Assembly: GCA_052035985.1 (NCBI GenBank)
Contig: JBPOHC010000034.1
Span: 1,320 to 65,319 of the forward strand
Length of the DNA: 64,000 nt
Direction: 5' to 3'
Source of the DNA: Myxococcota bacterium
Lineage (GTDB): Bacteria; Myxococcota_A; Polyangia; Polyangiales; Ga0077539
In this document: positions 37,091-59,548 of the stretch, piece by piece
How the letters are laid out: every line of letters starts with the position of its first letter
Position numbering within the stretch: the stretch's first letter is position 1
Made by a program: the position numbers and the translations under genes
Notes under the pieces: model-generated
The model's input: the letters and a program-made list of their open reading frames with translations, nothing else
The model's database searches: none
Told to the model about the DNA's origin: nothing

Positions 37091-38374
37091 TCAGAACCCG
37101 TAGCCCACGTCGATCGCCGCGACGGGAGCGGGGCTCCCCGTCGAGGTCCCGGTGTACGTCTCGCATGTCGCGTTGCCGATCGCGGCGCCGCTCTCTCTGC
37201 ACGCGCGCAGCGCAGGGGAATCACCCATCGCGCGGAGGTCCGCGGGGTTGGCGAGCACGCGCGCGCCGAGGAGCGCGCGGATCGCGACGCGCTCTCCGAC
37301 GCGCAGCTCACCCGTGACGCCGAAGAGCACCGAGAGGGCGAGCGCGCCGTCTTCGACCGAGGGCGTCATGCGGCAGGTGTTGTCGCCGCCGTCACACGAG
37401 AGCCTGGCGCGCGCGAGCGAGGCCGAGATGCCCGACGCGAAGCCGAGCGCGAAGCGCGTCCACGTGAGGCGGGCGTGCGCGAGCAGGGCCGCCGAAGGGC
37501 CGTAGAGACCGGGCGCGCCGACGTTCCCTTCGACGCCGAACCAGGGCTGCGGAAAGTACCTCACCGAGAGCGCGACGATGCCGCCCGGCGCGTTGTATCC
37601 GAGCTGCATCGCGAGGGTCAGCGGACGCTCCTGCCAGATCGACGGAGGCGTCGTGGTCGCTCGCGCGGCCCAGTCGATCCAGCGTCCGCCAGGGCCCGGT
37701 CGGGCCACCCAGTGACCGAAGGACTGCGTGCGCCCTGCCCAGTCTCGCGCCCCCGCCGCGGCGATCGCGGGCGTGCGCGTGAGCTCCACGACGACGCGCA
37801 TCGACTCGCCCTCGTAGACGGCGCCCTCGCGCCGCTGACGATCGCCCGCGGCGCCCTCGACCTCGACCGTGTGAGGCCCCGGATCGACGGGGATGTCCAC
37901 GCCGAGCAGCGCGCTCGCCTGCGCGCGACCGTCGAGTCGGAAGGCGCGCACCTCGTCGCCCGTGACCTCGACGCGCAGACGCGCCACGCGGCGTTCGAAC
38001 TCCGCGATGCGCTGCTGCGCGGCCTCGACGCGCAAGGGGTCGGCCCCCGCGGGCGTCTCGCGGACGAACTGGTGATAGAGGTCCATCGCGGCCACGAAGC
38101 GCCCGAGGTTCTCGTTCGCGACGGCGAGGTTGAAGCGGATGATCGGCGCGGGACGGATCGCCAGCGTGCGAGAGAAGCGGTCGCGGGCGTCCTCCCAGCG
38201 CGACGCCTGCGCGGCCTCGACGCCCTCGCGAAAGAGCCTCCGCGCGACCTCCATCGACTCCGGCGTCACCGTCGCCTCGGGCTCCGAGGGACGCGCCGCG
38301 GGCGCCTGCTGCGCGCGCGCCTCGCCCGCGAAGAGCGCCGAGAAAAGCAATGGAGAAACGATCCGTCGTCGCAT
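37091..38374 (-). CDS. Secreted protein: TPR-like N-terminal region + probable outer-membrane beta-barrel
   Basis: Signal peptide MRRRIVSPLLFSALFAGEARA. The C-terminal half has an alternating hydrophobic pattern and ends ..IDVGYGF, with a terminal aromatic residue typical of OMP barrels. Confidence 0.55.
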   Translation of the reverse strand: MRRRIVSPLLFSALFAGEARAQQAPAARPSEPEATVTPESMEVARRLFREGVEAAQASRWEDARDRFSRTLAIRPAPIIRFNLAVANENLGRFVAAMDLYHQFVRETPAGADPLRVEAAQQRIAEFERRVARLRVEVTGDEVRAFRLDGRAQASALLGVDIPVDPGPHTVEVEGAAGDRQRREGAVYEGESMRVVVELTRTPAIAAAGARDWAGRTQSFGHWVARPGPGGRWIDWAARATTTPPSIWQERPLTLAMQLGYNAPGGIVALSVRYFPQPWFGVEGNVGAPGLYGPSAALLAHARLTWTRFALGFASGISASLARARLSCDGGDNTCRMTPSVEDGALALSVLFGVTGELRVGERVAIRALLGARVLANPADLRAMGDSPALRACRESGAAIGNATCETYTGTSTGSPAPVAAIDVGYGF

Positions 38375-38447
38375 GGCAGCAGCGGCGCGAGAGAGTACCT
38401 CACATCGCGCGGAACCTGCTCTACCCTCTCACACTCAGAGCTCAACC

Positions 38448-40997
38448 GTGACGCAAGAACCACATCGTCCCGCGCTCCCGCGAGCGAGCGCGACGGCCCT
38501 CCTCTGCCTCGTCGCGTGCCGCGCGACGACGGCCTCAACCCCGCCCCCCACGACACCCCCGATCACAGCCGCCGAGCGGAGCGCCGAGGGAGACGTCTTC
38601 GTGCGCGCCGTCGACGCGCCCGCGATGCCCACCTGCGAGGCCACCGACGCGATCACCGCGGCGGCCCTCTCCGAAGGCGTCGCCGCGGCGCCCGCCCTCG
38701 CGCGACGGGGCGACGGCGGACTCGTCGCGTTCGTGACCGATCCGCACGGAGACGGCGCGACGAAGATCGACATCCTCGGCCTCGGCGCGCAGGGTTCTCC
38801 CGCCGACGAGAGCGGCGCCACGCGCCCCATCGTGGAGCTCGCGGACATGGGCGTCGCGCCGAACCTCCCGGCCCTCGCGCCGTGGCGTGAGGGATACCTC
38901 CTCGCGTGGCGCGCGGGCGCTCCGGGGCAGCAGCGCGTGATGACCCGCGCGCTCGACGCGCGAGGCATTCCCACGGGCGATGTGCACACGCACGGCGTCG
39001 CGGGATGGCTCGGCGCCCCGTCGCTCCTCGTGCGCGGAGAGCACTGGTTCGTGGCCGTCGCGAGGAGCGCTTCGCGCGTCGCGAACGCGGGCGCAGACGA
39101 GGGCGTCGCGTGGGCCTCGCACGTCGACCTCCTCTCGGACGATGGTCCCACACGGTCGACCGCGGCGCCCGATGGGGGCGTCTTCGACGGGAGCGCGCCG
39201 ACCCTCGTGAGCGCCCCCGACGGCCCGCGGATCTACGTCACGGCGATGCGCCGCGGAGGCGTCCCCGGAGACGAGCGCGCCCTCCTCGCGATCGACGGGA
39301 CCGACGTCACGATGGTGGCGCGCGACCTCGATCACCCCGCGGCGCTCCCGGTCGACGGCGGCGTGCTCGTCGCGTGGCGCGCGCGCATGACCCGCCACGA
39401 CGCGTCGATCCGCTCGGTGCTCCTGCCCTTCGACGGGGAGCCCGCTGCGCCGCCCGTCACGCTCTCGACCTACCGCGGCGCGTACGAAGCGCAGGTGGCC
39501 CTCGCGCCGCTCGCGCGCGACCTCGTCGCGGCCTTCACCATCTCGACCCTCGCGGACGACGGCGCGGGCTCGCTCAACGCGTCGCTCCTCGACGTCCGCG
39601 GCGGATACATCGGCCGCGCGCCGCTGCTCACGGGCTTTCCCACGAGGCGCTCGCGCGTCGTGGCCGCGAGCGCGCCGACGGGCGCGAGCGACGACAGCGT
39701 GTGGTTCGCCATCGACGGACGCGACGCCGACGGGTCCGGTCCTGAGCTCCTCCTCACGCGCGCGAGCTGCGACGCGTCTCGTCCGCGAGAGCGCCTCGAC
39801 GTGCCCCCGGGGACCTTCGTGCAAGACCTCTCGGCCCCCGACGCGGCCCCTGTGAGCCTCGCGCGAAACGCCTCTGAAATGCGCTGTCAGGTGCGCTCGA
39901 CGGGCGCCTTCACACCGCACGTCTCGGGCTCCGAGAACGGCCTCGCGGGCACGAGCGGCGGCGTCGCGGTCACCGCCTCGGGCGCGGTGCTCATGGCGAT
40001 CACGAAGTCCGACGGCGCCGCGCGGCCCAAGCTCATGCTCTCGACGCTCGACGCGCAGGGGCGCCTCTCGCCCGCGCGCGCCGTGATGGACAACCCCGCG
40101 CACCTCCTCGCGCTCGAACCCGTCGCGGGCGGAGCCCTCGCGGTGGTGACGTACACCTTTCAGAGCGCCGAGCGCGCCGACGTGGTGTTCGTGCGCGGCG
40201 CGACGGTGACGCACTCGCTCATGCCCACGGGGCTGCGGAACCCGTCGTCCGCGGTGATCGCGCAGTCGGGCGCGATCTTCGTCGTGGGAGAGAGCGACGC
40301 GGGTGACACCGTGCTCGCGCAGATCCCGTGGACCGCGGGGCGCGCGGGCGCACCCGTTCCGCTCGCGAGGCTGCGCGCGGGCGACGCGGTGCTCGACGCC
40401 ACGCGACAGGGGACCGAGACGCTGGTGCTCCTCGCGCGCCCCGACGCGATGGGATCGGCCGTGGCGCAGTCGATCACGAGGGTCGTCGTGCCCGACGGCG
40501 CGAGACCCACGGAGGCCGTACGCAACGCGCGAGACCCCTTCGCGGACCCCATCGGTCACGCGCGCGGAACGGCCCTCTGGGCGCGGGTTTCGAACGCTCC
40601 TGCGCTCGTGTACGACGAGCGAAACACGCTGCGAATCGCGGAGGTTTCTAGCGCTCAGGTGCGGTCTCCGAGGAGCGCCCTCGAGGTGCTCCCGGGCGGC
40701 GGCGAGGTGCTCTCGTCGTCGTGGAGCGCCGATGCGCGCTGGCTCGCGCTCTCGACGGGCTACGCCGACGAGCAGCACGCGTCGCTGCGCGCGGTGACGC
40801 TGGCCGCCATCGATCAGCGCGGCGAAGCGGCCGTGACCGCGCGGCTCCCCGATGACCCCAACGCCATCGCCGAGGGAACCGTGATCGGCGCGAACGGAGA
40901 CCGCGTGGTGGTGCTGCATCCCCGCAACGAGCCGCGCGGAGGCATCACGTGGGCGTGGGTCGAAGCGACGTGTTCGAGGACGGGAGGCGGTCGATGA
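38448..40997 (+). CDS. Large hypothetical lipoprotein (two internal modules of about 410-440 aa)
   Basis: GTG 38448 gives ..RASATALLCLVAC (lipobox). I recognise no family. The composition is beta-rich. The start is uncertain. Confidence 0.55.
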   Translation: MTQEPHRPALPRASATALLCLVACRATTASTPPPTTPPITAAERSAEGDVFVRAVDAPAMPTCEATDAITAAALSEGVAAAPALARRGDGGLVAFVTDPHGDGATKIDILGLGAQGSPADESGATRPIVELADMGVAPNLPALAPWREGYLLAWRAGAPGQQRVMTRALDARGIPTGDVHTHGVAGWLGAPSLLVRGEHWFVAVARSASRVANAGADEGVAWASHVDLLSDDGPTRSTAAPDGGVFDGSAPTLVSAPDGPRIYVTAMRRGGVPGDERALLAIDGTDVTMVARDLDHPAALPVDGGVLVAWRARMTRHDASIRSVLLPFDGEPAAPPVTLSTYRGAYEAQVALAPLARDLVAAFTISTLADDGAGSLNASLLDVRGGYIGRAPLLTGFPTRRSRVVAASAPTGASDDSVWFAIDGRDADGSGPELLLTRASCDASRPRERLDVPPGTFVQDLSAPDAAPVSLARNASEMRCQVRSTGAFTPHVSGSENGLAGTSGGVAVTASGAVLMAITKSDGAARPKLMLSTLDAQGRLSPARAVMDNPAHLLALEPVAGGALAVVTYTFQSAERADVVFVRGATVTHSLMPTGLRNPSSAVIAQSGAIFVVGESDAGDTVLAQIPWTAGRAGAPVPLARLRAGDAVLDATRQGTETLVLLARPDAMGSAVAQSITRVVVPDGARPTEAVRNARDPFADPIGHARGTALWARVSNAPALVYDERNTLRIAEVSSAQVRSPRSALEVLPGGGEVLSSSWSADARWLALSTGYADEQHASLRAVTLAAIDQRGEAAVTARLPDDPNAIAEGTVIGANGDRVVVLHPRNEPRGGITWAWVEATCSRTGGGR

Positions 40998-42346
40998 AGC
41001 GCACGACGAGATCACTCTTCGCAGTCATTTCAGCGCTGACGGCCAGCATCACCCTCGACGCCGCGGCGCAGTCGCGCGAGCCGCTCTGCGTGACCACGGA
41101 GGTTCGTCGCATCGCGAGCGCGCCCTTCATGCAGGTCAACGGGAGCGACTACCTCGTCGCGCTCCCGCTCCCGACGCCCGCGCGCGAGGGAGCGGCCTTC
41201 GTGGTGGCCGTTCGAGACCCCGATCACAGCCTGCGCGTAGGCGACGCGCGGGGCCTCACGCGCACCGTCGACGAGATGGAGTTCCACGCGCCCTACCGCG
41301 CGCCCGAGCGAGACCCGGGCCTCGCGGTGATGCGCCTCGACCGCGCGATGCGGCTCGTGGGTGAGGCCCTCTTCGTGCCCGATCCGGTGCGCGGAGAGCG
41401 CGGCGAGGAGACCTTTCCGCCAGGGATTCCAGCGGGTGTCACGGTCGATGACGGCGTGCTCGTCGCGGAGCACATCGCGGGTGACCTCTACGTGACCGTG
41501 GTGCCTCCGTCGGGCGCCGTTCAACCTCCACGGCGCCTCGCGCAATCGCCCGTGGCCTCGACGGGACACCGCGGCTTCGTGTGGATCACCGCGGCGCCGC
41601 GCGTGCGTGACGGAGCCCGCGGCGCGGCCGTGCTCGCGGGCACCGACGACGGCGAGGTCGTCGCCCTCGACCTCGACGGACACGGCGTCCCCCGCGGCGC
41701 GCCCGTCGTGTGGCAGCAGCACGTGGGCGGCGCGATGCAGCTCGTGGCGATCCCTGAAGCGAGCGAGCCAGTAGCGATCCTCGAGCGTCCCGTGCGGGGC
41801 ACCACGATGACCGGCGACCGCGCGCGGGAGCAGGTGCTCGTGCGACTCTCGCCGACGCTCGAACCCGTGGGCGAACCCGAGCGACTGGGCCTCGGCCCCT
41901 ACCCCACCACCGCCGTCGCCCGAGGGAGAGACCTCGTGATCGCGCAGTGGGCCGAGTCTCGCGGCATCGCCATCTCGACCCTCGCCGTCGAGCACGGCGC
42001 GCCCCACGTCGAGCTCCCGCGCATCTGGACCACCGACCCCCTCGAAGGCATCCCCCTCGCCCACGCCACCGTGCGCGGCGCAGGGAACGTCATCTACGAC
42101 CTCATGCTCCACGGCGACGACACGGCGGGGGGCCTCCACGCCTACGTGACGCACATCCCGCCCGCGGGCACGCCGTACCCGAGGCGCGACGTGATCCCCC
42201 TTCGCGCAAGGGTGATCGCGCGCCCGGCCCTGCTCCCCGCCGAAGACGGAGTCGCCGTCGTGATGGCCACCTACGACGAGCTCGGGGGCGGGGTCGACGT
42301 CGCACACGTGCGATGCGAAATGCTCACGCTCCCCGCACGTCCGTAG
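40994..42346 (+). CDS. Hypothetical secreted protein (third module of the same type)
   Basis: ATG 40994 overlaps the upstream stop (ATGA). It has the signal peptide MKRTTRSLFAVISALTASITLDAAAQ and shares motif style with the upstream protein. Confidence 0.6.
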   Translation: MKRTTRSLFAVISALTASITLDAAAQSREPLCVTTEVRRIASAPFMQVNGSDYLVALPLPTPAREGAAFVVAVRDPDHSLRVGDARGLTRTVDEMEFHAPYRAPERDPGLAVMRLDRAMRLVGEALFVPDPVRGERGEETFPPGIPAGVTVDDGVLVAEHIAGDLYVTVVPPSGAVQPPRRLAQSPVASTGHRGFVWITAAPRVRDGARGAAVLAGTDDGEVVALDLDGHGVPRGAPVVWQQHVGGAMQLVAIPEASEPVAILERPVRGTTMTGDRAREQVLVRLSPTLEPVGEPERLGLGPYPTTAVARGRDLVIAQWAESRGIAISTLAVEHGAPHVELPRIWTTDPLEGIPLAHATVRGAGNVIYDLMLHGDDTAGGLHAYVTHIPPAGTPYPRRDVIPLRARVIARPALLPAEDGVAVVMATYDELGGGVDVAHVRCEMLTLPARP

Positions 42347-42410: not shown

Positions 42411-44717
42411 ATGCGCACCCTTCTTAGTCCGCGCCTCTCCCTCGCTCTGTTGGCGTTGACGAGCTGTTCGCTCATCGTCGACCCCGACACTTCGAACCTT
42501 CAGCCGCGCCCTGGCGCCGACGGATCGACCACCGACACGCCCGTCGCCGACACCGCGCCTGACAGCGTTCCGCCGGAAGACGTGCCGCAGGGAGATGTCG
42601 CTCCCGATGAGCTGCCGCCCTCCGACGTGCCTCCCACGGACACGCCGCCTCCGCTCGACGTGCCGCCCGTCGATGTTCCGCCCGTCGATGTTCCGCCCGA
42701 CGATGTTCCGCCCGTCGATGTTCCGCCCGTCGATGTTCCGCCCGTCGATGTGCCTCCCGTCGATGTTCCGCCCGTCGATGTGCCCGTCACGTGCTCGGGC
42801 ACGACACGCCTCTGCGGTGACGTCTGCGTCGACGTGCAGAGCGATCCGCGCAACTGCGGCGCCTGCGGCAGCGCGTGCATCGCCGGTCAGGCGTGCATGG
42901 CCGGCGTCTGCATGACCGTCACCACCTGCGCGGCACCTCGGATGATGTGCGGGAGCGCGTGCGTCGACCCTCGCTCCGACGCGGCCAACTGCGGCGCGTG
43001 CGGAACCACCTGTCCCTCTGGCGCGGCCTGCACCGCGGGGATCTGCCGCTGCGCGAGCGGACAGAGCATCTGCCGCGACGCCTGCGTCGACACGCAGACC
43101 GACGAGCAGAACTGCGGCTCGTGCGGGCGCGTGTGCGCCGCCACCGAGACGTGCACCGCGGGGGCCTGCGTGCCCGTGTGCACGGGCTTCCAGCGTCTCT
43201 GCGGGACCGTCTGCGTCGACATCCAGAGCGACGCGCGCAACTGCGGCGCGTGCGGCACCGCGTGTCGCGCGAGCGAGACCTGCGCCGCGGGCGTCTGCAC
43301 GCCCACGTGCGCCGCGCCCCTGATGGTGTGCGGGTCGTCGTGCGTCGACATCACCAGTTCGAACACCCACTGCGGCCGCTGCAACAACGCGTGCGCCGTC
43401 GGTGAGCTCTGCACCGCGGGGGCCTGCGCGCCGATCTGCTCGGGCGGTCAGACCCTCTGCGGCGCGAGCTGCACCGACACCCGCAGCGATCCCCGCAACT
43501 GCGGACGCTGCGGCAACGCGTGCCCCACCGGGCAGTCGTGCACCGCGGGCACCTGCCGCGCGATCTGCCCCACGGGACAGTCCCTCTGCGGCGGCACCTG
43601 CGTCGACCTCCGCATCGACCCGCGCAACTGCGGCGCGTGCGGAACGACCTGCCCCGCGGGCCTCGTGTGCTCCGCGGGCGCTTGCAACTGCGCGTGCCCC
43701 ACGGGCAACACCTGCTGCCCCACGGGCACGGGCTCCGTCGGCTGCACCCTGCTCACCATCGACCCGCGCAACTGCGGTCGCTGCGGCAACGTCTGCCCCA
43801 CCGGTCAGATCTGCACCGCGGGCGCGTGCATGGCCATCTCCACCTGCGCGGCGCCTCGGACCATGTGCGGTGCGGCCTGCGTCGACACGACGACCGATTC
43901 GATGAACTGCGGCGCGTGCGGTCGCGCGTGCGGCGCGGGGCAGTCGTGCGTGGCGGGGGCGTGCGCGTGCCCCACGGGCCAGACCCTCTGCGGCGGCCGC
44001 TGCGTCTCGACGGCGACCGACTCGGCGAACTGCGGCATGTGCGGGCGCGTGTGCGCCACGGGCCAGGCTTGCTCGGGCGGCATGTGCGGCTGCGTGGCGC
44101 CCTCGATCGTGTGCGGCGGGACCTGCACCAACGTGCAGACCGACAGGCGTAACTGTGGCGCCTGCGGGACGGTCTGCGCCACCGGCCAGACCTGCACCAC
44201 GGGTCGCTGCGCGTGCCCCACGGGCTCGACGCTGAGCGGCGGCATCTGCGTGAGCCTCGCGAGCGATCCGCGTAACTGCGGCTCCGTCGGCAACCGCTGC
44301 CGCGCCGATCAGATGTGCTCCGCGAGCCGCTGCGTGTGCCGCGCGGGTCTCACGCAGATCACGGGCGGCCTCTGCACCGACCTCCAGGCGTCGCCCAACA
44401 ACTGCGGCACGCTCGGCAACCGCTGCGGGATGGGCCAGGCGTGCGTCGCGGGTCGCTGCCAGTCGTCGGGCAACTGCACCTCGCCCAACACGAACTGCGG
44501 CGGCTGGTGCGTGAACCGCAACACGCACCCCTACAACTGCGGCTCGTGCGGCAACATCTGCGACCAGAACCAGATCTGCGTCGCGGGGCAGTGCCGGACC
44601 TTCGTCGCGCCCGCGGGCTGCACCACCTGCCCCTGCACCTGCGCGACGGCGTCTACGTGCTGCTCCGCGCAGGACCGCATGGCCGGCGTGTGCGTGTCGG
44701 GCACCGCCTGCCCGTGA
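42411..44717 (+). CDS. Myxobacterial cysteine-rich-repeat lipoprotein (about 14 CGxCGxxC modules)
   Basis: MRTLLSPRLSLALLALTSC (lipobox), then a DVPPV tandem linker. About 14 units of about 38-40 aa of the form C(G)xxCVDxxxDxxNCGxCGxxCxxGxxCxxGxC follow. A GGACGGAG SD precedes the ATG. Confidence 0.85.
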   Translation: MRTLLSPRLSLALLALTSCSLIVDPDTSNLQPRPGADGSTTDTPVADTAPDSVPPEDVPQGDVAPDELPPSDVPPTDTPPPLDVPPVDVPPVDVPPDDVPPVDVPPVDVPPVDVPPVDVPPVDVPVTCSGTTRLCGDVCVDVQSDPRNCGACGSACIAGQACMAGVCMTVTTCAAPRMMCGSACVDPRSDAANCGACGTTCPSGAACTAGICRCASGQSICRDACVDTQTDEQNCGSCGRVCAATETCTAGACVPVCTGFQRLCGTVCVDIQSDARNCGACGTACRASETCAAGVCTPTCAAPLMVCGSSCVDITSSNTHCGRCNNACAVGELCTAGACAPICSGGQTLCGASCTDTRSDPRNCGRCGNACPTGQSCTAGTCRAICPTGQSLCGGTCVDLRIDPRNCGACGTTCPAGLVCSAGACNCACPTGNTCCPTGTGSVGCTLLTIDPRNCGRCGNVCPTGQICTAGACMAISTCAAPRTMCGAACVDTTTDSMNCGACGRACGAGQSCVAGACACPTGQTLCGGRCVSTATDSANCGMCGRVCATGQACSGGMCGCVAPSIVCGGTCTNVQTDRRNCGACGTVCATGQTCTTGRCACPTGSTLSGGICVSLASDPRNCGSVGNRCRADQMCSASRCVCRAGLTQITGGLCTDLQASPNNCGTLGNRCGMGQACVAGRCQSSGNCTSPNTNCGGWCVNRNTHPYNCGSCGNICDQNQICVAGQCRTFVAPAGCTTCPCTCATASTCCSAQDRMAGVCVSGTACP
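42660..42779 (+). repeat. 15-bp tandem repeat (8 units) encoding (D)VPPVD
   Basis: 8 consecutive copies of gt(t/g)cc(g/t)cccg(t/a)cgat. Six of the units are gttccgcccgtcgat or differ from it by one base. Confidence 0.9.
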
Positions 44718-44731
44718 CGCCGCGCGGATGA

Positions 44732-44770
44732 GCGCCGACCTCGGAGACACTCCCTCTCCGCGGTCGGCGC
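44732..44770. terminator. Compound 15-bp-stem hairpin between convergent genes (candidate bidirectional terminator)
   Basis: GCGCCGACC-t-CGGAGA-cactccc-TCTCCG-c-GGTCGGCGC. It lies in the 101-nt gap between the stops at 44717 (+) and 44819 (-). Confidence 0.5.
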
Positions 44771-44818
44771 CGACGCGCTCCCTCCCTCAGACTCACTTCA
44801 GAGCAACAACTCCAGACG

Positions 44819-45781
44819 TTACGCGTTGAGCGCGTCGATGATCTCGTCGACGGCCTTGCGCGCGCGCGCCATCTCCTGCGGCGGGAGCGAGATGGCGCCC
44901 ACGACGGGGTGTCCGCCGCCGCCGTAGCGCTCGCAGAGGGCGGCGATGTTGTGCTTGCGCTCGCGCTTCGCCCAGGGGTTGAAGCCCACGGAGATCTTCA
45001 CGCGCTTGGGGTTGCGCGAGAGCACCACGGAGTACTGCGCCGTGGGGAAGAGCTTGTATCCGACGAACTTCGCGACGGTCTCGAGGGGCGAGTCGGAGAG
45101 GTCGAACCAGGCCACGTCGCGGCGCTGCTCGCCCGACTCGGCCATGCGCTTCGAGAGCGTCTCGTGGCGCAGCTTGATGGGCCCGAGGCGCTGCGTCACG
45201 AGCGGGAGCGCGGCCACCTCGGCGAGGGGCTTCGAAGCGAGCAGCGGGATGAGCTGCGCGTTGAGCGTGTCGTCGCCCTGCTCCTGCACGACGGCGGCGA
45301 TCGCCATCGCGGGCGGGTCGAAGGAGCTCGCCACGTCGGCGTCGGGGAAGCGCGCCGCGTCGATGATGTCTGACCACGAGACGAGCTCGTCGAGGTCGGG
45401 GGCGGTCCACCCGAAGCGCTCGCGGGCCACGTCGATGAGGAGCTGCGTGCAGCTCCCGTAGGTGCCGTCGTGGAACTTCTTGCCCGTGGTGTCGGCGCGG
45501 AAGTGGACCTCGGAGCCCTTCTCCTGAAACGCGCTCACGTGGTGGTCGAAGTACCAGGTGAGGAGCTCCGACGGGCTGTAGCGGTAGTCGAGCAGGGCGT
45601 TGATCGCGCCGCGCTTCAAGCGGTCGCCGGGCGGCGGCGCGTTGGGCTCGTAGAGCAGTCCCTTGTACGAGAACTCGGCGCGCGCGAGGTCCGGCGATGT
45701 CTCACGCAGAAAGCGCGAGAAGATCGCGGCCGACGTGGCGCCATCGAAGCAGTAACCGTGGTGGGCGACGAGGACTTCCAT
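44819..45781 (-). CDS. DHH/DHHA1-family phosphoesterase (NrnB-like)
   Basis: ATG 45781 (MEVLVAHHGYCFDGATSAAIF, HxxxxDG-type N-terminal motif). The C-terminal ..ERYGGGGHPVVGA.. carries the DHHA1 GGGH motif. Confidence 0.5.
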   Translation of the reverse strand: MEVLVAHHGYCFDGATSAAIFSRFLRETSPDLARAEFSYKGLLYEPNAPPPGDRLKRGAINALLDYRYSPSELLTWYFDHHVSAFQEKGSEVHFRADTTGKKFHDGTYGSCTQLLIDVARERFGWTAPDLDELVSWSDIIDAARFPDADVASSFDPPAMAIAAVVQEQGDDTLNAQLIPLLASKPLAEVAALPLVTQRLGPIKLRHETLSKRMAESGEQRRDVAWFDLSDSPLETVAKFVGYKLFPTAQYSVVLSRNPKRVKISVGFNPWAKRERKHNIAALCERYGGGGHPVVGAISLPPQEMARARKAVDEIIDALNA

Positions 45782-45902
45782 GTGCGGCGCACCATGCCAC
45801 CACACCGCGCGCGAAGGCAAAGCCCCGTCGCGCCGCGCGGACCTCGCGCGGATTGATCCCCTTTACGCGCAGGGCGCATTGGTTGTACCCGTGGCAGCCG
45901 CG

Positions 45903-50363: not shown

Positions 50364-52352
50364 ATGAGCAACGAGACCGTGTCTGGGGGCGACGCTCCCG
50401 GGCCTGTATCCGCGACGAGCGCATCGCCTCCCTCCGCTGAACCCCCGCCCTCACCACCGCAGTCACCCCCCACCCACGACGCGCCAGGCGGACACCACGG
50501 CTCCCTCGCGGGCCTCGCCCTCGGCGCCCTCGGCGTCGTCTACGGCGACATCGGGACCTCGCCCCTCTACGCCGTGAAGGAGTGCTTCGCGCACGGCCAC
50601 GGCGTCGACCCGACGCTGCCCAACGTGCTCGGGATCCTCTCTCTCATCGTGTGGTCGCTGATCCTGGTGATCGTGGTGAAGTACATCGCGTTCATCCTCC
50701 GCGCCGACAACCACGGCGAGGGCGGGATCCTCGCGCTCCTCGCGCTGGTCTCGCCGCGCGCCGACGCGGGGACGCCGCGCGCCGCGCTGATCGTGCTCGG
50801 CCTCTTCGGCGCCGCGCTGCTCTACGGCGACGGGATCATCACGCCTGCGATCTCGGTGCTCTCGGCCGTCGAGGGCCTCGAGGTCGCGACCACGACGGTG
50901 CACCCCTTCATCGTGCCCATCACGGTGCTGATCCTCGTCGGGTTGTTCCTCGTGCAGAAGCGCGGAACGGCGGGCGTGGGCGCGGTCTTCGGCCCCGCGA
51001 CGCTGGCGTGGTTCGTCGCCATCGCGGCCTCTGGGGTCCCGTGGATCGCGCGTCACCCCGAGGTGCTCACGGCGTTCAATCCCCTCTACGGCGCGCGCTT
51101 CTTCGCCGAGCACGGCTGGCACGGGTTTCTGCTCCTCGGGTCGGTGGTGCTCTGCGTGACGGGCGGCGAGGCCCTCTACGCAGACATGGGTCACTTCGGC
51201 CGTCGCCCGATCCGCTGGGCGTGGTTCGCGGTGGTGTTCCCCGCGCTGCTCTGCAACTACTTCGGTCAGGGCGCGGTGCTGCTCGAGCGCGGCGAGGCGG
51301 CGAGGGACAACCCGTTCTTCGCGATGGTCCCTGGCGTGATGGTGTACCCCATGGTGGCCATCGCGACGGTGGCCACGGTGGTGGCCTCGCAGGCCCTCAT
51401 CTCGGGCGCGTTCTCGCTCACGCAGCAGGCCGTGCAGCTCGGGTACTGCCCGCGCGTCACGATCGTCCACACGTCGGGCGAGGCCGAGGGGCAGATCTAC
51501 ATCCCCGAGGTGAACGGCTTCCTCATGGTGGCGTGCGTGCTGCTGGTGCTGATGTTCCGCGAGTCGTCGAAGCTCGCGGCGGCGTACGGCATCGCGGTCA
51601 CGGGCACGATGAGCATCACGTCGGTGCTGTTCTTCAACCTCACGCGCCAGTGGGGGTGGCCCATGTGGAAGAGCGTCGCCCTCGTGGGCCTCTTCCTCGT
51701 GTTCGACCTGGGCTTCCTCGCGGCCAACGTGGTGAAGGTCTCCGACGGCGGCTGGCTCCCCCTCGTCGTCGCCGCGGGCGTCTTCACCGCCATGACCACG
51801 TGGAAGCGCGGCCGCCGCTCCCTCGGCACGCACGTCATCGCGAACACGCTCCCGATGGAGCTCTTTCTCTCCGACGTGGCCGCCACCAAGCCCCACCGCG
51901 TGCAGGGCACGGCGGTCTTCATGACCTCGAACCCGAGCGGCGCCCCGCCGGTGCTCCTCCATCACTTCAAGCACAACAAGGTGCTGCACGAGCGGGTGAT
52001 CCTCCTCTCGGTGCAGACCCGCCACGTGCCCGAGGTGCCCGTCTCCGAGCGCGTCGAGATGACCGAGCTCGGCGACGGCTTCTCGCTGGTCGTCGCCACC
52101 TTCGGCTTCATGCAGACCCCCGACGTCATGGACGTGCTCCGCCTCTGCAAGTCGAAGGGGCTCGCCGTCGAGCCCGAGGGCGCGAGCTTCTACCTCGGCC
52201 GCGAGACGCTCCTCACGACGGGGCGCGCGGGGATGGCCCGCTGGCGCAAGGTGCTCTTCGCGTTCCTGTCTCGCAACGCGCGCCCGGCCAACATGTTCTT
52301 CAACATCCCGCCGAACCGCGTCGTCGAGCTCGGCACCCAGATCGAGCTCTGA
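50364..52352 (+). CDS. kup: KUP/HAK/KT potassium transporter
   Basis: The hallmark LGALGVVYGDIGTSPLYA. It is a polytopic protein of 662 aa with the typical cytoplasmic C-terminal domain. Confidence 0.9.
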   Translation: MSNETVSGGDAPGPVSATSASPPSAEPPPSPPQSPPTHDAPGGHHGSLAGLALGALGVVYGDIGTSPLYAVKECFAHGHGVDPTLPNVLGILSLIVWSLILVIVVKYIAFILRADNHGEGGILALLALVSPRADAGTPRAALIVLGLFGAALLYGDGIITPAISVLSAVEGLEVATTTVHPFIVPITVLILVGLFLVQKRGTAGVGAVFGPATLAWFVAIAASGVPWIARHPEVLTAFNPLYGARFFAEHGWHGFLLLGSVVLCVTGGEALYADMGHFGRRPIRWAWFAVVFPALLCNYFGQGAVLLERGEAARDNPFFAMVPGVMVYPMVAIATVATVVASQALISGAFSLTQQAVQLGYCPRVTIVHTSGEAEGQIYIPEVNGFLMVACVLLVLMFRESSKLAAAYGIAVTGTMSITSVLFFNLTRQWGWPMWKSVALVGLFLVFDLGFLAANVVKVSDGGWLPLVVAAGVFTAMTTWKRGRRSLGTHVIANTLPMELFLSDVAATKPHRVQGTAVFMTSNPSGAPPVLLHHFKHNKVLHERVILLSVQTRHVPEVPVSERVEMTELGDGFSLVVATFGFMQTPDVMDVLRLCKSKGLAVEPEGASFYLGRETLLTTGRAGMARWRKVLFAFLSRNARPANMFFNIPPNRVVELGTQIEL

Positions 52353-52353
52353 C

Positions 52354-53697
52354 TCACTGCCCGCGCTTGTCGCCCGCGCGCGGCCCCCACGAGGTGATCG
52401 CGACGGGCGCACCGAGCGCCTCCGCGGTCGCCTCGACGTAGCCCGCAGCATCACTCGAAACCTCTTCGTACAAGGGCTCCGCAGACGAGAGCGCCGCGGT
52501 GATCCGCGCCTGATGCGCGAGGTCCTGCCACGGTCCGAGGGCGAGCGTGCGGCCGTCGTCGGAGAAGAGATCGCGGTCTTCATCGCGCACGCGATAGCGG
52601 TCACAGACGCGCCACGACGCGCGCCCCGCGAGTCGGTCGAGGTGCGTGAGCGCGAGCGCGTCGACGCGGCCGCAGCAGGCCACGGCGTAGCGCGAGAGCA
52701 CGCGGTCGCTCCAGCCCGCGCGAAAGGCGCCCTGCCACGCGCCGTACGGGTTGTGCGGCTCCGCGAGCGCCGCCGTGAGCGCGGAGTCCTCTGTGGGAAA
52801 GGGCCCCGCACCGTGCCGCGTCGCGTACGCTCGGAGCGCTCCGACGCGCCGCACCTCGCCGTCGTAGCCGTGCTCTCGGAGGAGTTCGTCTGCGTTGTCG
52901 AAGGTGCAGGTGCTCCACGTCGTGTGCGGGTGCGTGCCGCGCCACTCGTCGAGCAGCACGCCCTGCGCGCCTTCGAAGATCACCGCGCCGTCTGCGCGCA
53001 GCACCTCGGCGAAGCGCGCGTCGTCGACCACACGCACAGCCGCGCGCCACTCCGAGAGCGCGTCGATCCACGCGTCGATCACGGCGTCGTTTTCGAACGC
53101 GCCCACATCGCGCGCGGCCTCGGGGTCTCGCGCCACGGCGCGCAGCACGTCGTCGAGCTCCGCGCGCTTGCGGTCTCTCACGCGAACGAGCGCGCGTCGC
53201 AGCGAGGGCGTGTCAGAGAGCTCTCCCGCGCGCAGCACGTCGCCGTGGGTGGTCGCGTCGAGCATCACCTCGCCCACGCCGACGCCGCAGCTCCCGTGGC
53301 GTGCGCTCCCGCGCGCGAGCTCTCTCAGCCGCGAGGCCGACTGGTGAAAGGGCGTCACGACCTTCGCCGCGGCGCTCACCGTGACGCGCGAGAGCGGATC
53401 GGCGACGCCGCTTCGCGCGAGGTGCCACGCCTCGACGATGAGCGCCGTGGGGTGCACCACGACGTGCCGCGAGAGCCACGTGCGTACGCCCGGTGAGAAG
53501 CTCCCCGCGCCGAGCTGCGCGAAGGTGTGGTGTCGCCCGTCGTCGGTGACGACGTTGTGTCCGGCCTGCGCGCCGCCGTTGAAACGCACGACGGTGTGAG
53601 CGCCGCGCGCGCGGGTGAGGTGGTCGGTGATGGTGCCTTTGCCCGCATCGCCGAAGCCGAGGTCGACGACGACGTGAGCCTCGCGACGCGCGGTCAT
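52354..53697 (-). CDS. Adenylosuccinate-synthetase-family (PurA-like) GTP-dependent ligase, divergent substrate loop
   Basis: Several PurA motifs are conserved: P-loop GFGDAGKGT (vs GDEGKGK), GGAQAGHNV (vs GGHNAGHT), IFEGAQGVLLD, YATRHGAGPFPTE and LTHLDRL (vs LTKLDVL). GATTGRRRR is replaced by GAWQGAFRA, and TTGRGIGP by GSCGVGVG. The start lies 7 nt after the vWA stop. Confidence 0.75.
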   Translation of the reverse strand: MTARREAHVVVDLGFGDAGKGTITDHLTRARGAHTVVRFNGGAQAGHNVVTDDGRHHTFAQLGAGSFSPGVRTWLSRHVVVHPTALIVEAWHLARSGVADPLSRVTVSAAAKVVTPFHQSASRLRELARGSARHGSCGVGVGEVMLDATTHGDVLRAGELSDTPSLRRALVRVRDRKRAELDDVLRAVARDPEAARDVGAFENDAVIDAWIDALSEWRAAVRVVDDARFAEVLRADGAVIFEGAQGVLLDEWRGTHPHTTWSTCTFDNADELLREHGYDGEVRRVGALRAYATRHGAGPFPTEDSALTAALAEPHNPYGAWQGAFRAGWSDRVLSRYAVACCGRVDALALTHLDRLAGRASWRVCDRYRVRDEDRDLFSDDGRTLALGPWQDLAHQARITAALSSAEPLYEEVSSDAAGYVEATAEALGAPVAITSWGPRAGDKRGQ

Positions 53698-53704
53698 CGG
53701 AGGG

Positions 53705-54676
53705 TCAGCGCTTGTGGCCGCTGGTGCCGTCGCCCTGGGGGATCGCGCCCGCCGAGGTCTTCGGCGCGGGTGCTCCGTCGCGTCCGCGCGAGGCCGAGAA
53801 CGCGGTGACGGCGCGCACGACGGCGCCCACGCGCTTGCCCTCGACGCCGTTGTCTCGCAGGCGCTTCGCGAGCGCGTCGAGGTCGCTCACGGCGCCCTCG
53901 CAGAGCGCCATGAGGCCCGCGGTGACGAGGCACGTGTCGGCGGGCTCCTCCATGACGATGACGTGGTCGCCGAGGGCGTCGCGCCACGCGCGCTCGCAGC
54001 GCTTCGCGCGGCTCGGATCGGGGATGAGAAAGAACGGTTCGAAGGTGCGCTGGAGCTCGTCGACGACGCGCGCGAGCGGGAGATCATCATCGAGGGCGTC
54101 GCCCACGAGGTCGTGCACCTGCTTCTTGCTCACGTAGGGGTACGGGTTCTCGTCGCCGGTCATGAAGAGGTAGCCGCGGTGCTTGCGCTTCTCCCAGCAG
54201 TCCATCGAGGTGTGGCGCGCGGCGATGTAGAGCCCGAGCTCGTACGACTCGGTGCCGAGCGCGCCGCCGCCGCCTTCGAGGAAGCTCCAGGTGAGCCACT
54301 GGTCCATCTCCTTGGCGGCCGATTCGAACTGGCCGACCTGGAGCGGGGCGCGGTCGCACGTCGCGTCGCCGACGGCCATGAAGAGCACCTGCGGATCGGG
54401 CATCCCGCAGTCGAGGAGCGTCTTCATGAACGTGGGCAGCTCGCGCTTGGCGAGGAGCTCGGGGATCTGCCCCATGGAGCCCGTGACGTCGAGCGCGAAG
54501 ACCACGCCGACGGAGTTGGGATGCGAGGGGCTGTCGCGCGACTCGCGCATCTTCAGCCCGTGCGGATTCATCAGGGGATGGCAGCTCTTCTGCGTGAACA
54601 CCTGCTGCCGCGGGAGCTCCGCGCGCGCCTTCGTGATGGCCTCGTGAGCCTCGTGGCTATAACCGCCGTATCCCAT
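53705..54676 (-). CDS. vWA-domain protein with an intact MIDAS
   Basis: ATG 54676 (MGYGGYSHEAHEAITKA..) is preceded by an AGGAG SD. The MIDAS elements are ALDVTGSMG (DxTxS), ..LGTES.. and ..FMTGDE.. Confidence 0.75.
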   Translation of the reverse strand: MGYGGYSHEAHEAITKARAELPRQQVFTQKSCHPLMNPHGLKMRESRDSPSHPNSVGVVFALDVTGSMGQIPELLAKRELPTFMKTLLDCGMPDPQVLFMAVGDATCDRAPLQVGQFESAAKEMDQWLTWSFLEGGGGALGTESYELGLYIAARHTSMDCWEKRKHRGYLFMTGDENPYPYVSKKQVHDLVGDALDDDLPLARVVDELQRTFEPFFLIPDPSRAKRCERAWRDALGDHVIVMEEPADTCLVTAGLMALCEGAVSDLDALAKRLRDNGVEGKRVGAVVRAVTAFSASRGRDGAPAPKTSAGAIPQGDGTSGHKR

Positions 54677-54698
54677 GTGTGATTCTCCTGTCGGGTGA

Positions 54699-55703
54699 TC
54701 AGGCGGGCATGACGAGAGGCACGAACCGCGGGGGTCCGAAGGCGTCACGGCCGGCCTGAGAGACGCGCTCGATCATCTCCCACGCGTCATCGGCGGGAGC
54801 GTCGGGCGAGAGGTTCGCGTAGTCGCTCACGAGCCTCGCGAGGGGCTCTGGAACGGAGCTCGGGACCGTCCCCTTCGCGGGGTCTCCGCCGAGCACGTAG
54901 GCCACCGAGCGCGCGGCCATGATGAGGTCCGTGGCGTGCGTCGCGACGCGCTGATCCCACGCGGGCGCGGGATAGAACCTCTGCGCCGACGCGCTCACCG
55001 CGGGGAGCTTCCCGCTGCGCACGACCGACGACCAGCCCGCGAGCACGACGCCGTGGTCCTTCGCGTGGAGGATGAGATGCGAAGGGATCACCGCGCCGTG
55101 GGTGTAGCCCGCGCGATGGACCCACCCGAGGAGTTCCAGCAGTCGCTTCCAGATCCACACGGAGGCGCGCGGGTCGACGCCGTTCGGGTACGCGCGGCGT
55201 ACGTCTTCGAGCGTGTGCACGAAGCCGCTGCGCCAGCGGAAGACCGACGCGGTCCGCGGTGCGAAGCCCACCCCCGTGACGCGCCCGTGCGTGACGGGCT
55301 GCGGCAGGAGCCTCTGGAAGTAGTCGGCCCCCTGCGCGTCGGAGGCGTGGAGCGCCTGGAGGTTGTGCCACTCGCGCTCGAGGAGGTCTGCGTCGGAGAT
55401 CGCGCGGAGGACCTTCAAGATCACCAGCTCGGTGAGCCGTCGATCGCGCCGCGCGAGGAAGACGTCACAGCCGTCGCCCTCCGCGATGCGACCCATGAGG
55501 GCGTAGGTGTACCCCTCGACGTGGACCCTCGGGAGGCCGTCGTCGGGACCGGCTTCGGGTCCCGTCCAACGCAGCGCCCCCGCGCCGGGGACGTTGGTGA
55601 GCACGTGGTTGCAGTACGCGCAGACGACCTCGCCGCGCGCCTCAGGGGGCAGCGGCGCCGCGCAGTTGGGGCACCGAAGAACCTCGATCGCCATTGAGCT
55701 CAC
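54699..55703 (-). CDS. Zinc-ribbon + protein-kinase-fold protein lacking catalytic residues (pseudokinase)
   Basis: N-terminal LRCPNCAAPL..VCAYCNHVL (CxxC..CxxC). The kinase-like N-lobe has GRIAEGDGCDVFLA and VILKVL. The catalytic-loop position reads YTHGAVIPSHLIL (no HRD Asp or Asn), and the DFG position reads VLAGWS. A GGGGAG SD sits 10 nt upstream. Confidence 0.65.
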   Translation of the reverse strand: MSSMAIEVLRCPNCAAPLPPEARGEVVCAYCNHVLTNVPGAGALRWTGPEAGPDDGLPRVHVEGYTYALMGRIAEGDGCDVFLARRDRRLTELVILKVLRAISDADLLEREWHNLQALHASDAQGADYFQRLLPQPVTHGRVTGVGFAPRTASVFRWRSGFVHTLEDVRRAYPNGVDPRASVWIWKRLLELLGWVHRAGYTHGAVIPSHLILHAKDHGVVLAGWSSVVRSGKLPAVSASAQRFYPAPAWDQRVATHATDLIMAARSVAYVLGGDPAKGTVPSSVPEPLARLVSDYANLSPDAPADDAWEMIERVSQAGRDAFGPPRFVPLVMPA

Positions 55704-55749
55704 ACTCCCCGCATGACGCGGTTGTTATGTGGATCTCTCGCGCGTGAAA

Positions 55750-56523
55750 TCAACCCGCGGCGTCGGCCTCTACGGCGTCGGTCTCGGGGCGCGTCCACTC
55801 GTCGAGGAACCGCGGGAGCATCTCGCGCCAGGTGATCCAGTCGTGGTGCCACTCGGGGCCCCAGTTGTCGACGAAGTTGGGAATCCCCTTGCGGCCCAGG
55901 GTGTTCGCGAGGTTCCAGCTCTCGGAGATGTCCTCCCAGCGGCCCTCGCCCGAGGCGATGAGAATCTGCCGCGTGCGCAACAGGTCGAGGTGCATCCCCG
56001 CGAGCGTGGGCACGAAGTGGATGGGCGACGAGACCCACATCTCGGGCGTCGGCTCCGTCGCGCCGATGAAGCGCAGGAGGTTGAAGGTCCCGCTCATCGC
56101 GATGGCCTTGTGAAACAGATCGGGGAAGCGGCACACCATCGCCGCCGCGTGGAACGCCCCGATGGAGGCCCCCGCGGCCCACAGCCCGACGCCCTCGTCG
56201 CCGCAGTCTTTACGGATCGCGGGCACCACCTCGTGCTTCACGTACTGGTGGTACTGGTTCATCATCCACATGCGGTGCTGGGGCGAGACTCCCTTCTCGA
56301 ACATGGTTCGACCCGCCACGCTGTCGCACGAGTAGATCTTCACGCGACCCGCCGAGAGCAGCGGCTCGAGCACCTTCATCATCTGAAAGCGCTCGATCTC
56401 CTCGGCGTCTCCGCCCGCCGTCGGAAAGACCAGAACGGGCTGACCGAAGTGACCCCAGCGGGCCAGCGTCGACTCACAGCCCAACCGCTCGGAGTGCCAC
56501 CGCGTCTTCGCAAACGTGCTCAT
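55750..56523 (-). CDS. Esterase-family alpha/beta hydrolase (PF00756-like 'putative esterase')
   Basis: ..GQPVLVFPTAGGD.., the nucleophile elbow AAGASIGAFHA (GxSxG), and a size and pattern resembling esterase D/Ag85-type proteins. Confidence 0.65.
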   Translation of the reverse strand: MSTFAKTRWHSERLGCESTLARWGHFGQPVLVFPTAGGDAEEIERFQMMKVLEPLLSAGRVKIYSCDSVAGRTMFEKGVSPQHRMWMMNQYHQYVKHEVVPAIRKDCGDEGVGLWAAGASIGAFHAAAMVCRFPDLFHKAIAMSGTFNLLRFIGATEPTPEMWVSSPIHFVPTLAGMHLDLLRTRQILIASGEGRWEDISESWNLANTLGRKGIPNFVDNWGPEWHHDWITWREMLPRFLDEWTRPETDAVEADAAG

Positions 56524-56629
56524 CGAGCGCGGATCATCGCACGAAGGTCGCTCCCGGCCGCAACGGTTTCGCGCGTCTTAGAACGACGCACCGCGGCGTC
56601 GCTCTGGGGTTCAATTCGCGCTCGGATGT

Positions 56630-59548
<2,919 letters not shown>

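Follow-up and report, generated by a model that had tools for sequence, protein, structure and literature searches.

A PurA-like enzyme with a remodelled aspartate site, encoded with kinase-like and vWA-like partners in bacteria and mycobacteriophages

The window analysed here, the whole 64,000-nucleotide stretch of DNA from a Myxococcota bacterium, encodes a PurA-like protein that we assign, with a probability of roughly 0.6, to a large, distinct and uncharacterised branch of the PurA superfamily, other than housekeeping adenylosuccinate synthetase, that would be GTP-driven and would use a nucleophile other than L-aspartate. Its gene is the last of a trio, preceded by genes for a kinase-like and a vWA-like protein (Table 1); we found no earlier description of this module in the full-text literature. 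To our knowledge only two chemistries, those of PurA and PurZ, have so far been ascribed to the superfamily, and both use aspartate; the present clade would be a third large branch, in which GTP-driven activation is kept and the partner substrate is changed.

Table 1. Coordinates of the trio genes and their motifs in the window
Feature	Position	Strand	Basis
Zn-ribbon and Hanks-type kinase-fold protein, ORF of 334 aa	54699..55703	-	AF2, Foldseek, profile search
CxxC...CxxC zinc ribbon of kinase-like protein	55611..55673	-	
Degenerate catalytic segment of kinase-like protein: HGAVIPSH for HRDxKxxN, then GWS for DFG	55029..55100	-	
vWA-like protein, 323 aa	53705..54676	-	Homologue names, Foldseek
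Extreme N-terminus MGYGGYS of vWA-like protein	54656..54676	-	Family motif M-G-x-G-x-[YW]-[SD]
MIDAS-type motif DVTGS of vWA-like protein	54476..54490	-	
PurA-like protein, 447 aa, ATG start	52354..53697	-	PF00709; E. coli PurA alignment
P-loop GDAGKG (E. coli GDEGKG), D17 and K20	53635..53652	-	D17, K20 in 84/84
NGGAQAGHN (E. coli GGHNAGHT); H47 = H41 equivalent, Q44 for N38	53554..53580	-	Alignment
RHGSCGVGVGE for the IMP 5'-phosphate loop (A)IGTTGRGIGP; C137 for T129	53269..53301	-	Alignment
EGAQG, Q245 = Q224 equivalent	52960..52974	-	Alignment
HPHTTWS; T260 = T239 equivalent, W261 clade-specific and invariant	52912..52932	-	Alignment
TRHGAGPFPTE (E. coli TRVGAGPFPTE); H295 for V273	52789..52821	-	Alignment
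NPYGAWQGAFRAG, remodelled 'aspartate loop': W321, Q322, F325, R326	52714..52752	-	Alignment
THLD (E. coli TKLD), guanine-specificity motif; D354 = D333 equivalent, K331->H352	52636..52647	-	Alignment

Family membership and active-site residues

Pfam PF00709 spans residues 9-440 of the PurA-like protein (E = 3e-68), and E. coli PurA (1ade/1kjx) matches it by HMMER at E = 1e-36, with about 30% identity and a fold common over the full length. Equivalog scores were nonetheless far short of the cut-offs: 193.5 bits against 402 for NF002223 (NCBIfam PurA), 159.2 against 395.55 for TIGR00184 (PurA) and 56.9 against 300 for NF038379 (NCBIfam PurZ). At least 589 species genomes contain relatives, and all 150 of the 50%-identity cluster representatives among the matches listed score above 334 bits. 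Four longer homologues (P0476, P0450, P0007 and P0457) were considered as gene fusions, but Pfam searches found no extra domains in them. Truncated lineages are represented by the phages Vibrio phiKT1024 and Rhizobium TM21B.

Residues were mapped onto E. coli PurA with a MAFFT alignment, with which the HMMER alignment agrees. The original prediction, made by eye, had described a PurA-family enzyme retaining the GTP/phosphotransfer residues; this was borne out by the Pfam match and the residue map, and each motif it had picked out was reproduced by both programs. The residues that we take to serve GTP/Mg binding and catalysis in E. coli PurA are the P-loop G12-G17 with D13 and K16, and H41, Q224, D333 and S414. 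Those kept in the window protein are D13->D17, K16->K20, H41->H47, Q224->Q245, D333->D354 and S414->S436, as well as T239->T260, and across the clade D17, K20, H47, Q245, D354 and S436 are each found in 82-84 of 84 homologues.

The substrate-facing positions are different. The side chains that we presume, from the structural literature, to contact L-aspartate (V273, T300, T301, R303 and R305) read H295, W321, Q322, a deletion and F325 in the window protein. Here YGAWQGAF-RAGW aligns with E. coli FGATTGRRRRTGW, one residue shorter, in both HMMER and MAFFT; equivalently, NPYGAWQGAFRAG is one residue shorter than GATTGRRRRTG. A shift in the manual alignment had been a concern at this loop, and both programs still place the changed residues there. 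The earlier statement that the aspartate-binding loop is lost thus stands as to the replaced contacts and the shortening, but the loop is better described as remodelled. Other changes are N38->Q44, T129->C137, R131->V139 and K331->H352, and R143 is not conserved. Three of the four presumed IMP 5'-phosphate contacts (N38, T129, R143' and T239) are therefore replaced, T260 alone being kept. An S/T at position 128 is kept, as is the T239 equivalent, and a phosphate might be held by R133/H134, so that the acceptor could still be a nucleotide 5'-phosphate.

Conservation was assessed in 84 diverse homologues from many phyla and a phage. D17, K20, Q44, H47, W261, H295, Q322, R326 and D354 were invariant (84/84), and C137 (82/84) and W321 (80/84) nearly so. 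A clade signature (Q44, H57, RHGSCG, W261, H295, N316 and WQGxFR) is complete in the window protein and present in 80-84 of the 84 family members, and the changed residues were near-invariant in a set of 19 homologues too. Such near-invariance of the replaced residues points to a new, selected active site under purifying selection, rather than to chance or decay.

In public databases the window protein and its homologues are annotated as adenylosuccinate synthetase, and electronic inference has given them GO terms for purine biosynthesis. This annotation, together with a PurA fold complete over the whole length, would suit an adenylosuccinate synthetase (EC 6.3.4.4), ordinary or back-up, whose mode of aspartate binding differs. 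We regard that as very improbable, since all of the aspartate-contacting side chains are replaced in a shortened loop, the scores lie below half of the equivalog cut-offs, copies on phages and plasmids are accompanied by non-purine partner genes, and the gene occurs in Saccharibacteria, which usually lack de novo purine synthesis. The public labels are probably wrong for the whole clade and would mislead metabolic reconstructions, notably of Saccharibacteria and phages.

The gene trio and its distribution

The three genes form a tight operon on one strand in the order kinase-like, vWA, PurA-like, with the kinase-like stop 22 nt before the vWA ATG and the vWA stop 7 nt before the PurA-like ATG. 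This order is kept in 66 of the 74 loci with enough upstream DNA, from many phyla, and most of the exceptions still have partner genes nearby. Clustering of the flanks of 82 loci returned the kinase-like, vWA and NrtR-like genes as the only conserved partners; the genes flanking the trio vary from locus to locus. Membership in this conserved module, the most informative fact about the PurA-like gene, had been overlooked in the original prediction. Consensus scans for promoters and terminators over 52000-56800 found nothing.

The kinase-like protein probably starts at ATG 55694 (331 aa), the length of its nearest homologues. Its AF2 model (pLDDT 87) matched PknB 1o6y in Foldseek (E = 1.5e-10), and its profile matched PknB among PDB sequences (~2e-7). 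The VAIK Lys and alphaC Glu are retained; by comparison with PknB, H-G-A stands at HRD, His209 at the catalytic-loop Asn and G-W-S at DFG. On these residues we predict a pseudokinase or an atypical kinase. PADLOC gave weak matches for this protein (MkoA 6e-6, PD-T4-6 1e-3) and none for the PurA-like and vWA proteins, and we set aside a known defence system as a label for the trio, the matches being weak and confined to the kinase-like member.

The vWA ORF extends to 54748, the conserved start being ATG 54676 with GGAG upstream. Its homologues are 321-330 aa long, and some are annotated 'VWA domain-containing protein'. Foldseek matched the model (pLDDT 71) to integrin beta I-like/vWA folds with probability 0.99-1.0, but at E ~2e-3 and TM 0.4. 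Pfam vWA models matched neither the window protein nor its homologues, the family profile matched no PDB sequence, and the only Pfam signal in homologues was a weak DUF444 in 5 of 20 (best E = 0.015). The MIDAS-type motif is strongly conserved across 74 homologues (D 74/74, T 71/74, S 74/74; distal D and E both 74/74). At the start codon, M-G-x-G-x-[YW]-[SD] is found in all but about 6 of the 74, phage and second paralog copies included, and AF2 gives residues 1-10 a pLDDT below 50. Co-variation of this N-terminus with the PurA-like loop was considered and dropped: W321->P is confined to L039 and L049, where the vWA protein lacks the MG start; being close relatives, these two loci count as a single event, and L037 contradicts the pattern, leaving the signal too weak.

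The trio moves horizontally among bacterial phyla, megaplasmids (of Rhodococcus, Tsukamurella and Variovorax) and Bixzunavirus phages. The copy in the window is not obviously mobile, given its housekeeping-like flanks and native codon usage. An NrtR-like Nudix-wHTH gene is linked to the trio in three different arrangements, this type of regulator accompanying it in Actinomycetota and Saccharibacteria, and an ADP-ribosylglycohydrolase gene is linked in three Saccharibacteria loci. NrtR-type Nudix regulators belong to an ADP-ribose-sensing family. The PurA-like enzyme probably belongs to a nucleotide-linked system.

About 203 records of Bixzunavirus (cluster C1 mycobacteriophages) carry the trio, all three proteins being homologous to those of the window (phrog_3043, phrog_2971 and phrog_1211 in PHROGs). 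In LRRHood the relevant products are gp253 ('serine/threonine kinase'), gp254 and gp256 ('PurA-like adenylosuccinate synthetase'). The trios are orthologous, with identities of 40%, 30% and 31%, and share order and strand, and the phage PurA-like protein keeps the signature residues of the window's clade. Differences are an additional 88-aa gene between the phage vWA and PurA-like genes, and, in the kinase-like protein, a J-domain-like HPD N-terminus where the window protein has the Zn ribbon, and D-W-C where it has G-W-S. RefSeq calls the phage homologues '2-aminooxy adenylosuccinate synthetase', which looks like annotation transfer. Our search of the full-text literature found no functional study of the trio or of the phage genes; it turned up only genome announcements listing the gene (PMC9476963, PMC11468179), and a further lead (PMC3088708) was rejected, its subject being prophage insertion at canonical purA.

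Candidate reactions

A GTP-driven ligase is the most economical reading of a protein that falls below both the PurA and PurZ equivalog cut-offs and has its aspartate pocket replaced. The enzyme retains the set with which PurA binds GTP and Mg2+ and phosphorylates an acceptor oxo group (P-loop Asp/Lys, catalytic His, Gln and guanine-specific Asp/Ser). Conservation of the catalytic residues with PurA suggests a first step in which a purine-like or lactam oxygen on the acceptor would be phosphorylated at the expense of GTP. In a second step, a nucleophile lacking carboxylates, and hence not L-aspartate, would displace the phosphate. Invariant Trp, Gln, Phe and His residues form the pocket that replaces the L-aspartate site, and the 5'-phosphate clamp is largely altered. 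The kinase-like and vWA proteins would probably be regulatory or substrate-presenting partners. The original prediction of a GTP-driven ligase with another amine donor, and perhaps another acceptor, fits the residue pattern and the failed cut-offs, and we retain it as a proposal drawn from sequence.

The second step might instead be absent, leaving an enzyme that only phosphorylates, or a GTP-hydrolysing switch or drain controlled by the vWA and kinase-like partners. Conservation of the PurA site in its GTP/phosphotransfer half only would fit this, as would the frequent pairing of vWA proteins with NTPases (by analogy with MoxR/chelatase) and a kinase-like partner lacking its own catalytic Asp. 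We consider it rather improbable: W261, H295, W321, Q322, F325 and R326 are as invariant as the GTP site, which implies a specific second ligand, and H47 and Q245, which serve acceptor chemistry in PurA, are retained.

If ligation does take place, the nucleophile could be ammonia or a small neutral amine. The enzyme would then be a purine aminase whose acceptor, a nucleotide or nucleoside of a 6-oxopurine (IMP, GMP, XMP or a derivative, for instance an inosine-containing dinucleotide), has its oxygen exchanged directly. D17, H47 and Q245, whose counterparts act on purine N1/O6 in PurA, are invariant; the neutral aromatic pocket fits an uncharged nucleophile; E. coli PurA takes hydroxylamine instead of aspartate, making direct amination chemically feasible; and the links to NrtR-type and, in Saccharibacteria, ADP-ribosylglycohydrolase genes point to nucleotide/ADP-ribose biology. 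We still judge such an aminase unlikely, as it leaves the kinase-like and vWA partners without a role, the loss of N38, T129 and R143 speaks against a plain nucleoside 5'-monophosphate, and neither flank clustering nor the neighbourhoods inspected revealed an adenylosuccinate-lyase-like or other purine gene linked to the trio. Were it correct, the reaction would serve, in phage-host conflict or under stress, either to reshape the nucleotide pools or to produce a modified signal of the adenine type.

For the preferred ligase with a non-aspartate nucleophile, a more specific version, which we put forward as a long shot, has a protein-borne amine in place of L-aspartate. The lead candidate would be the vWA partner, whose N-terminal glycine would react through its alpha-amino group. 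The start-codon motif is conserved all the way from Myxococcota to the mycobacteriophages, and a flexible tail is predicted. That amine would be joined to C6 of a purine nucleotide ('protein purinylation') with the kinase-fold protein, bearing a Zn ribbon or a J-domain-like head, as adaptor, and the result would be a new GTP-driven protein-nucleotide conjugation in phage-host conflict or stress signalling. Whichever substrates apply, identifying them could bring to light a modified nucleotide, a signal or a protein modification of a new kind, and could also explain why every cluster C1 mycobacteriophage retains this gene set.

Comparison with known systems

With PurA the window protein shares GDxGKG, the catalytic Asp and His, Gln224, T239, TR.GxGPFPTE, the Asp of (T)xLD and S414. 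It differs in the aspartate site, the 5'-phosphate contacts and K331, and in that its gene belongs to a kinase-like/vWA operon found also on phages and plasmids.

PurZ, the succino-amino-deoxyadenylate synthase of Z-genome phages, resembles the clade in being a phage-borne, divergent PurA-family enzyme of altered specificity, and both fall in phrog_1211. Solved PurZ chains, however, match only residues 6-154 of the window protein (E ~2e-6), and PurZ still uses L-aspartate, whereas the aspartate site of the window protein is rebuilt. No datZ/mazZ-type genes were seen in the annotated phage neighbourhoods or emerged from flank clustering of the 82 loci.

In architecture only, the trio resembles kinase and vWA stress modules, namely the TerY-P module (vWA, Ser/Thr kinase and PP2C) and the PrkA/YeaG-YeaH(DUF444)-YcgB module, each combining a kinase-fold protein, a MIDAS vWA protein and a third enzyme. 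The trio has neither a PP2C gene nor an AAA+ PrkA domain nor a SpoVR gene, and the catalytic Asp is absent from its kinase-like protein. What sets it apart from both is its third gene, which encodes a PurA-like enzyme.

Remodelled active site of the PurA-like protein

The Pfam adenylosuccinate synthetase model spans residues 9-440 of the PurA-like protein (E = 3e-68), the closest solved structures by HMMER are the E. coli PurA entries 1ade/1kjx (E ~1e-36), and the GC3 of the ORF (0.89) resembles that of the remainder of the window. The protein was aligned to E. coli PurA with HMMER and, independently, with MAFFT together with 19 clade members. Both alignments paired GDAGKG with GDEGKG, GGAQAGHN with GGHNAGHT and GSCGVGVG with GTTGRGIG (PurA-like first), and both kept EGAQG; TRHGAGPFPTE likewise faces TRVGAGPFPTE, THLD faces TKLD, and GAWQGAF-RAGW, with one residue deleted, faces GATTGRRRRTGW. 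The by-eye alignment behind the original prediction was reproduced exactly by both programs, with no shift.

In E. coli numbering, D13, K16, H41, Q224, T239, D333 and S414 are retained; the substitutions are N38Q, T129C, R131V, S240W, V273H, T300W, T301Q, R305F and K331H, with R303 deleted and R143 not conserved. Read by the roles that the structural literature gives the E. coli residues (catalysis, GTP, IMP 5'-phosphate, aspartate/hadacidin), the sequence shows a PurA fold with conserved GTP and catalytic residues, in which an invariant neutral/aromatic set takes the place of the aspartate pocket and of most of the clamp for the 5'-phosphate. The aspartate-binding loop had been called lost; its contact residues are indeed replaced and one is deleted, but the loop itself is remodelled and conserved, not lost.

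The replacement residues are invariant in 19 homologues of 51-83% identity. In a set of 84 sequences (82 bacterial loci, one mycobacteriophage and the window), Q44, H57, W261, H295, N316, Q322 and R326 (window-protein numbering) occur in all, as do the catalytic D17, K20 and H47, and D354; H134 is found in 83, C137 in 82, W321 in 80 and F325 in 73 (Val in 10). This is a new site rather than decay, the remodelled loop being under strong purifying selection. The NCBIfam PurA equivalog models score the protein at 193.5 bits (cut-off 402) and 159.2 bits (cut-off 395.55), and the PurZ model at 56.9 bits (cut-off 300), so that by curated criteria it is neither. That it is nonetheless a genuine adenylosuccinate synthetase (AdSS) with an unusual mode of binding aspartate is the least likely of the rival explanations, and a very improbable one.

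The three-gene module

The PurA-like gene is the third and last of three closely packed genes, separated by gaps of 22 nt and 7 nt. To see how far the arrangement is conserved, the proteins of all three window genes were searched by tblastn in 82 unique loci, 74 of which had at least 2.3 kb upstream; order and strand were the same in 66 of these 74. In four of the eight exceptions (L037, L039, L049, L070) both partners lie upstream across a wider gap, due in L049 to a much longer vWA protein; in L015 the kinase-like gene is downstream instead, and in L006 and L034 the vWA gene is the sole partner. Several loci have two vWA paralogues. The PurA-like gene is obligatorily linked to genes for a degenerate kinase and for a vWA protein of MIDAS type; L007 alone, among the 74, shows neither partner. 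Genes outside the module vary between loci, which indicates that it is self-contained.

Features of the window discussed in the text
Feature	Position	Strand	Remarks
Kinase-like gene	54699-55703	-	likely true start ATG at 55694, giving 331 aa as in the closest homologues
vWA gene	53705-54676	-	323 aa; conserved ATG with GGAG upstream
vWA N-terminal motif	54656-54676	-	at the start codon
PurA-like gene	52354-53697	-	single ORF, 447 aa, ATG start
Kup potassium transporter gene	50364-52352	+	converges on PurA-like gene; stop codons one base apart
Long ORFs (955, 465, 333, 175, 162 aa)	38130-42346; 42887-45820	+; -	no Pfam match at E<=1e-4; gene-like codon statistics

A consensus scan gave no terminator-like hairpin between the Kup and PurA-like genes. 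In the Pyxidicoccus parkwayensis locus (L001, 5697-7675 and 21222-21392), Pfam matches to NADase_transloc, PIN and, weakly, AbiGi and a DEAD-box helicase lie beside the module; these surroundings could be a conflict-system neighbourhood, of a type not seen around the window copy.

In the kinase-like protein a Hanks-type kinase fold (AF2 pLDDT 87) follows a CxxC...CxxC zinc ribbon; it matches PknB with Foldseek (E = 1.5e-10) and by profile against the PDB (~2e-7). Against an approximate PknB reference sequence, the protein retains the Lys of VAIK and the Glu of alphaC, while H-G-A replaces HRD, His the catalytic-loop Asn and G-W-S the DFG; a pseudokinase or an atypical enzyme is therefore predicted. 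Homologues from Actinomycetota, Chloroflexota, Patescibacteria and phages carry, instead of the ribbon, an N-terminal 'YRxLAxxxHPD' motif (L017, L014, L048 and the phage gp253 at L084:3550-4680), a J-domain-like segment for which Pfam DnaJ was sub-threshold in four of four proteins tested (E 6e-4 to 1.5e-2). These lineages have D-W-C at the DFG position, where 73 sequences divide into 37 with D and 36 with G.

The vWA protein, whose homologues some sources call 'VWA domain-containing protein', gives weak Foldseek matches to integrin beta I-like/vWA domains; its MIDAS-type motif, D-x-T-x-S ... D-E, is invariant. Pfam vWA models did not match it, the sole Pfam signal in the family being a weak one to DUF444 (YeaH/YhbH) in 5 of 20 homologues. 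All but ~6 of 74 homologues, the phage protein and second paralogues included, open with M-G-x-G-x-[YW]-[SD] on a tail predicted to be disordered, from Myxococcota to mycobacteriophages (L001, L009, L032, L052, L079, L084). Such conservation of a protein's very first residues is unusual.

Clustering of flanking ORFs yielded a Nudix plus NrtR-type winged-helix protein in 31 loci (Pfam NUDIX E = 7e-21, NrtR_WHD 2e-10). Its gene lies directly upstream and co-directional in Actinomycetota (L051, L083, L048 and others) and one Terriglobales MAG (L028); in Saccharibacteria (L014, L037, L047, L049; NrtR_WHD to 1e-24) it lies upstream and divergent, adjoining an ADP-ribosylglycohydrolase in three loci of that group; and it lies directly downstream, with weaker matches, on Rhodococcus and Tsukamurella plasmids (L088, L089). 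Three distinct arrangements argue for a functional link of the trio to this ADP-ribose/nucleotide-sensing regulator family. Beside the window copy the gene is absent, the upstream neighbour being an esterase.

Distribution in bacteria, plasmids and phages

A word-indexed search gave many matches of 50-97% identity, all named adenylosuccinate synthase or unnamed. Among 50%-identity representatives, an exhaustive search with HMMER found at least 150 clusters, all above 334 bits among the matches listed; E. coli PurA scores ~130 bits in the HMMER comparison with solved structures. When a single genome was scanned for each species, at least 589 stretches were confirmed to contain relatives. Among the taxa are Myxococcota, Actinomycetota (Micromonospora, Embleya, Actinomadura and others), Chloroflexota, Vulcanimicrobiota, Patescibacteria (Saccharibacteria, Uhrbacteria, Paceibacterota), Acidobacteriota, Planctomycetota, Variovorax and one gammaproteobacterial MAG. 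Thirteen megaplasmids carry the gene, including those of Rhodococcus (R. jostii RHA1 among them), Tsukamurella and Variovorax; both plasmids inspected have the order kinase-like, vWA, PurA-like, NUDIX.

Among 50,697 phage records, tblastn matched 240, of which ~203, with ~40% identity and scores of 250 bits, came from Mycobacterium phages of the Bixzunavirus group (cluster C1), the remainder standing sharply apart (at most 31% and 131 bits). In LRRHood the order is gp253 'serine/threonine kinase', gp254, gp255 (88 aa) and gp256 'PurA-like adenylosuccinate synthetase', and the kinase-like, vWA and PurA-like window proteins all match there (31%, 30% and 40% identity); the PHROGs entries of the phage trio are phrog_3043 (kinase), phrog_2971 (unknown function) and phrog_1211 (a PurZ-type name). 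The PurA-like protein of the window is an orthologue of the uncharacterised 'PurA-like' product of Bixzunavirus, and the module has spread horizontally, phages and plasmids included. Plasmid records (NZ_CP118322.1, NZ_LR134455.1) name the homologue 'adenylosuccinate synthetase' and attach a purine-biosynthesis GO term inferred electronically, and RefSeq phage records such as NC_054719.1 name it '2-aminooxy adenylosuccinate synthetase'. Since the active site of the homologues differs, both labels are probably wrong.

Two further phage proteins annotated 'adenylosuccinate synthetases', from Vibrio phage phiKT1024 (L090:574-1710) and Rhizobium phage RHph_TM21B (L091:610-1860), fall outside both PurA and PurZ when judged by the NCBIfam cut-offs. 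Both have the RHGS[CT]G, TRHG and QG-loop motifs of the PurA-like clade, but a THLD-type guanine motif could not be made out towards the C-terminus. The non-aspartate PurA-like lineages of phages may form a wider set.

Proposed reaction and comparison with known systems

The most likely view is that the enzyme would still spend GTP on phosphorylating an oxo group of a purine-like acceptor; as in PurA, the base would be D17, the acid H47 and the acceptor contact Q245. The phosphate would then be displaced by a nucleophile without carboxylates, and the kinase-like and vWA partners may regulate the enzyme or present its substrate. That the nucleophile is a small amine or ammonia, making the protein a nucleotide aminase, we consider unlikely, and still more so that it is a phosphorylation-only enzyme or a GTP switch. 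It is a rather remote idea that the vWA protein donates the amine from its conserved N-terminal glycine: W321 is Pro in two related Saccharibacteria loci whose vWA protein lacks the MG start, a coincidence that carries little weight because it represents one evolutionary event and has a counter-example. The original prediction of a GTP-driven ligase with another amine donor, and possibly another acceptor, is sound on sequence though unproven, and it missed the surrounding module; its observation is confirmed, its interpretation partly supported.

The protein is a variant of a PurA-type enzyme, in a module that is not among the systems listed by PADLOC and for which we found no functional description in the literature. 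TerY-P triads and PrkA/YeaG-YeaH show a similar pairing of kinase and vWA protein, a likeness of architecture only: the defining third component of the triads is absent here, as is that of PrkA/YeaG-YeaH, for which the DUF444 signal is marginal. With PurA and PurZ, below whose membership cut-offs it scores, the PurA-like protein would share the first half-reaction.
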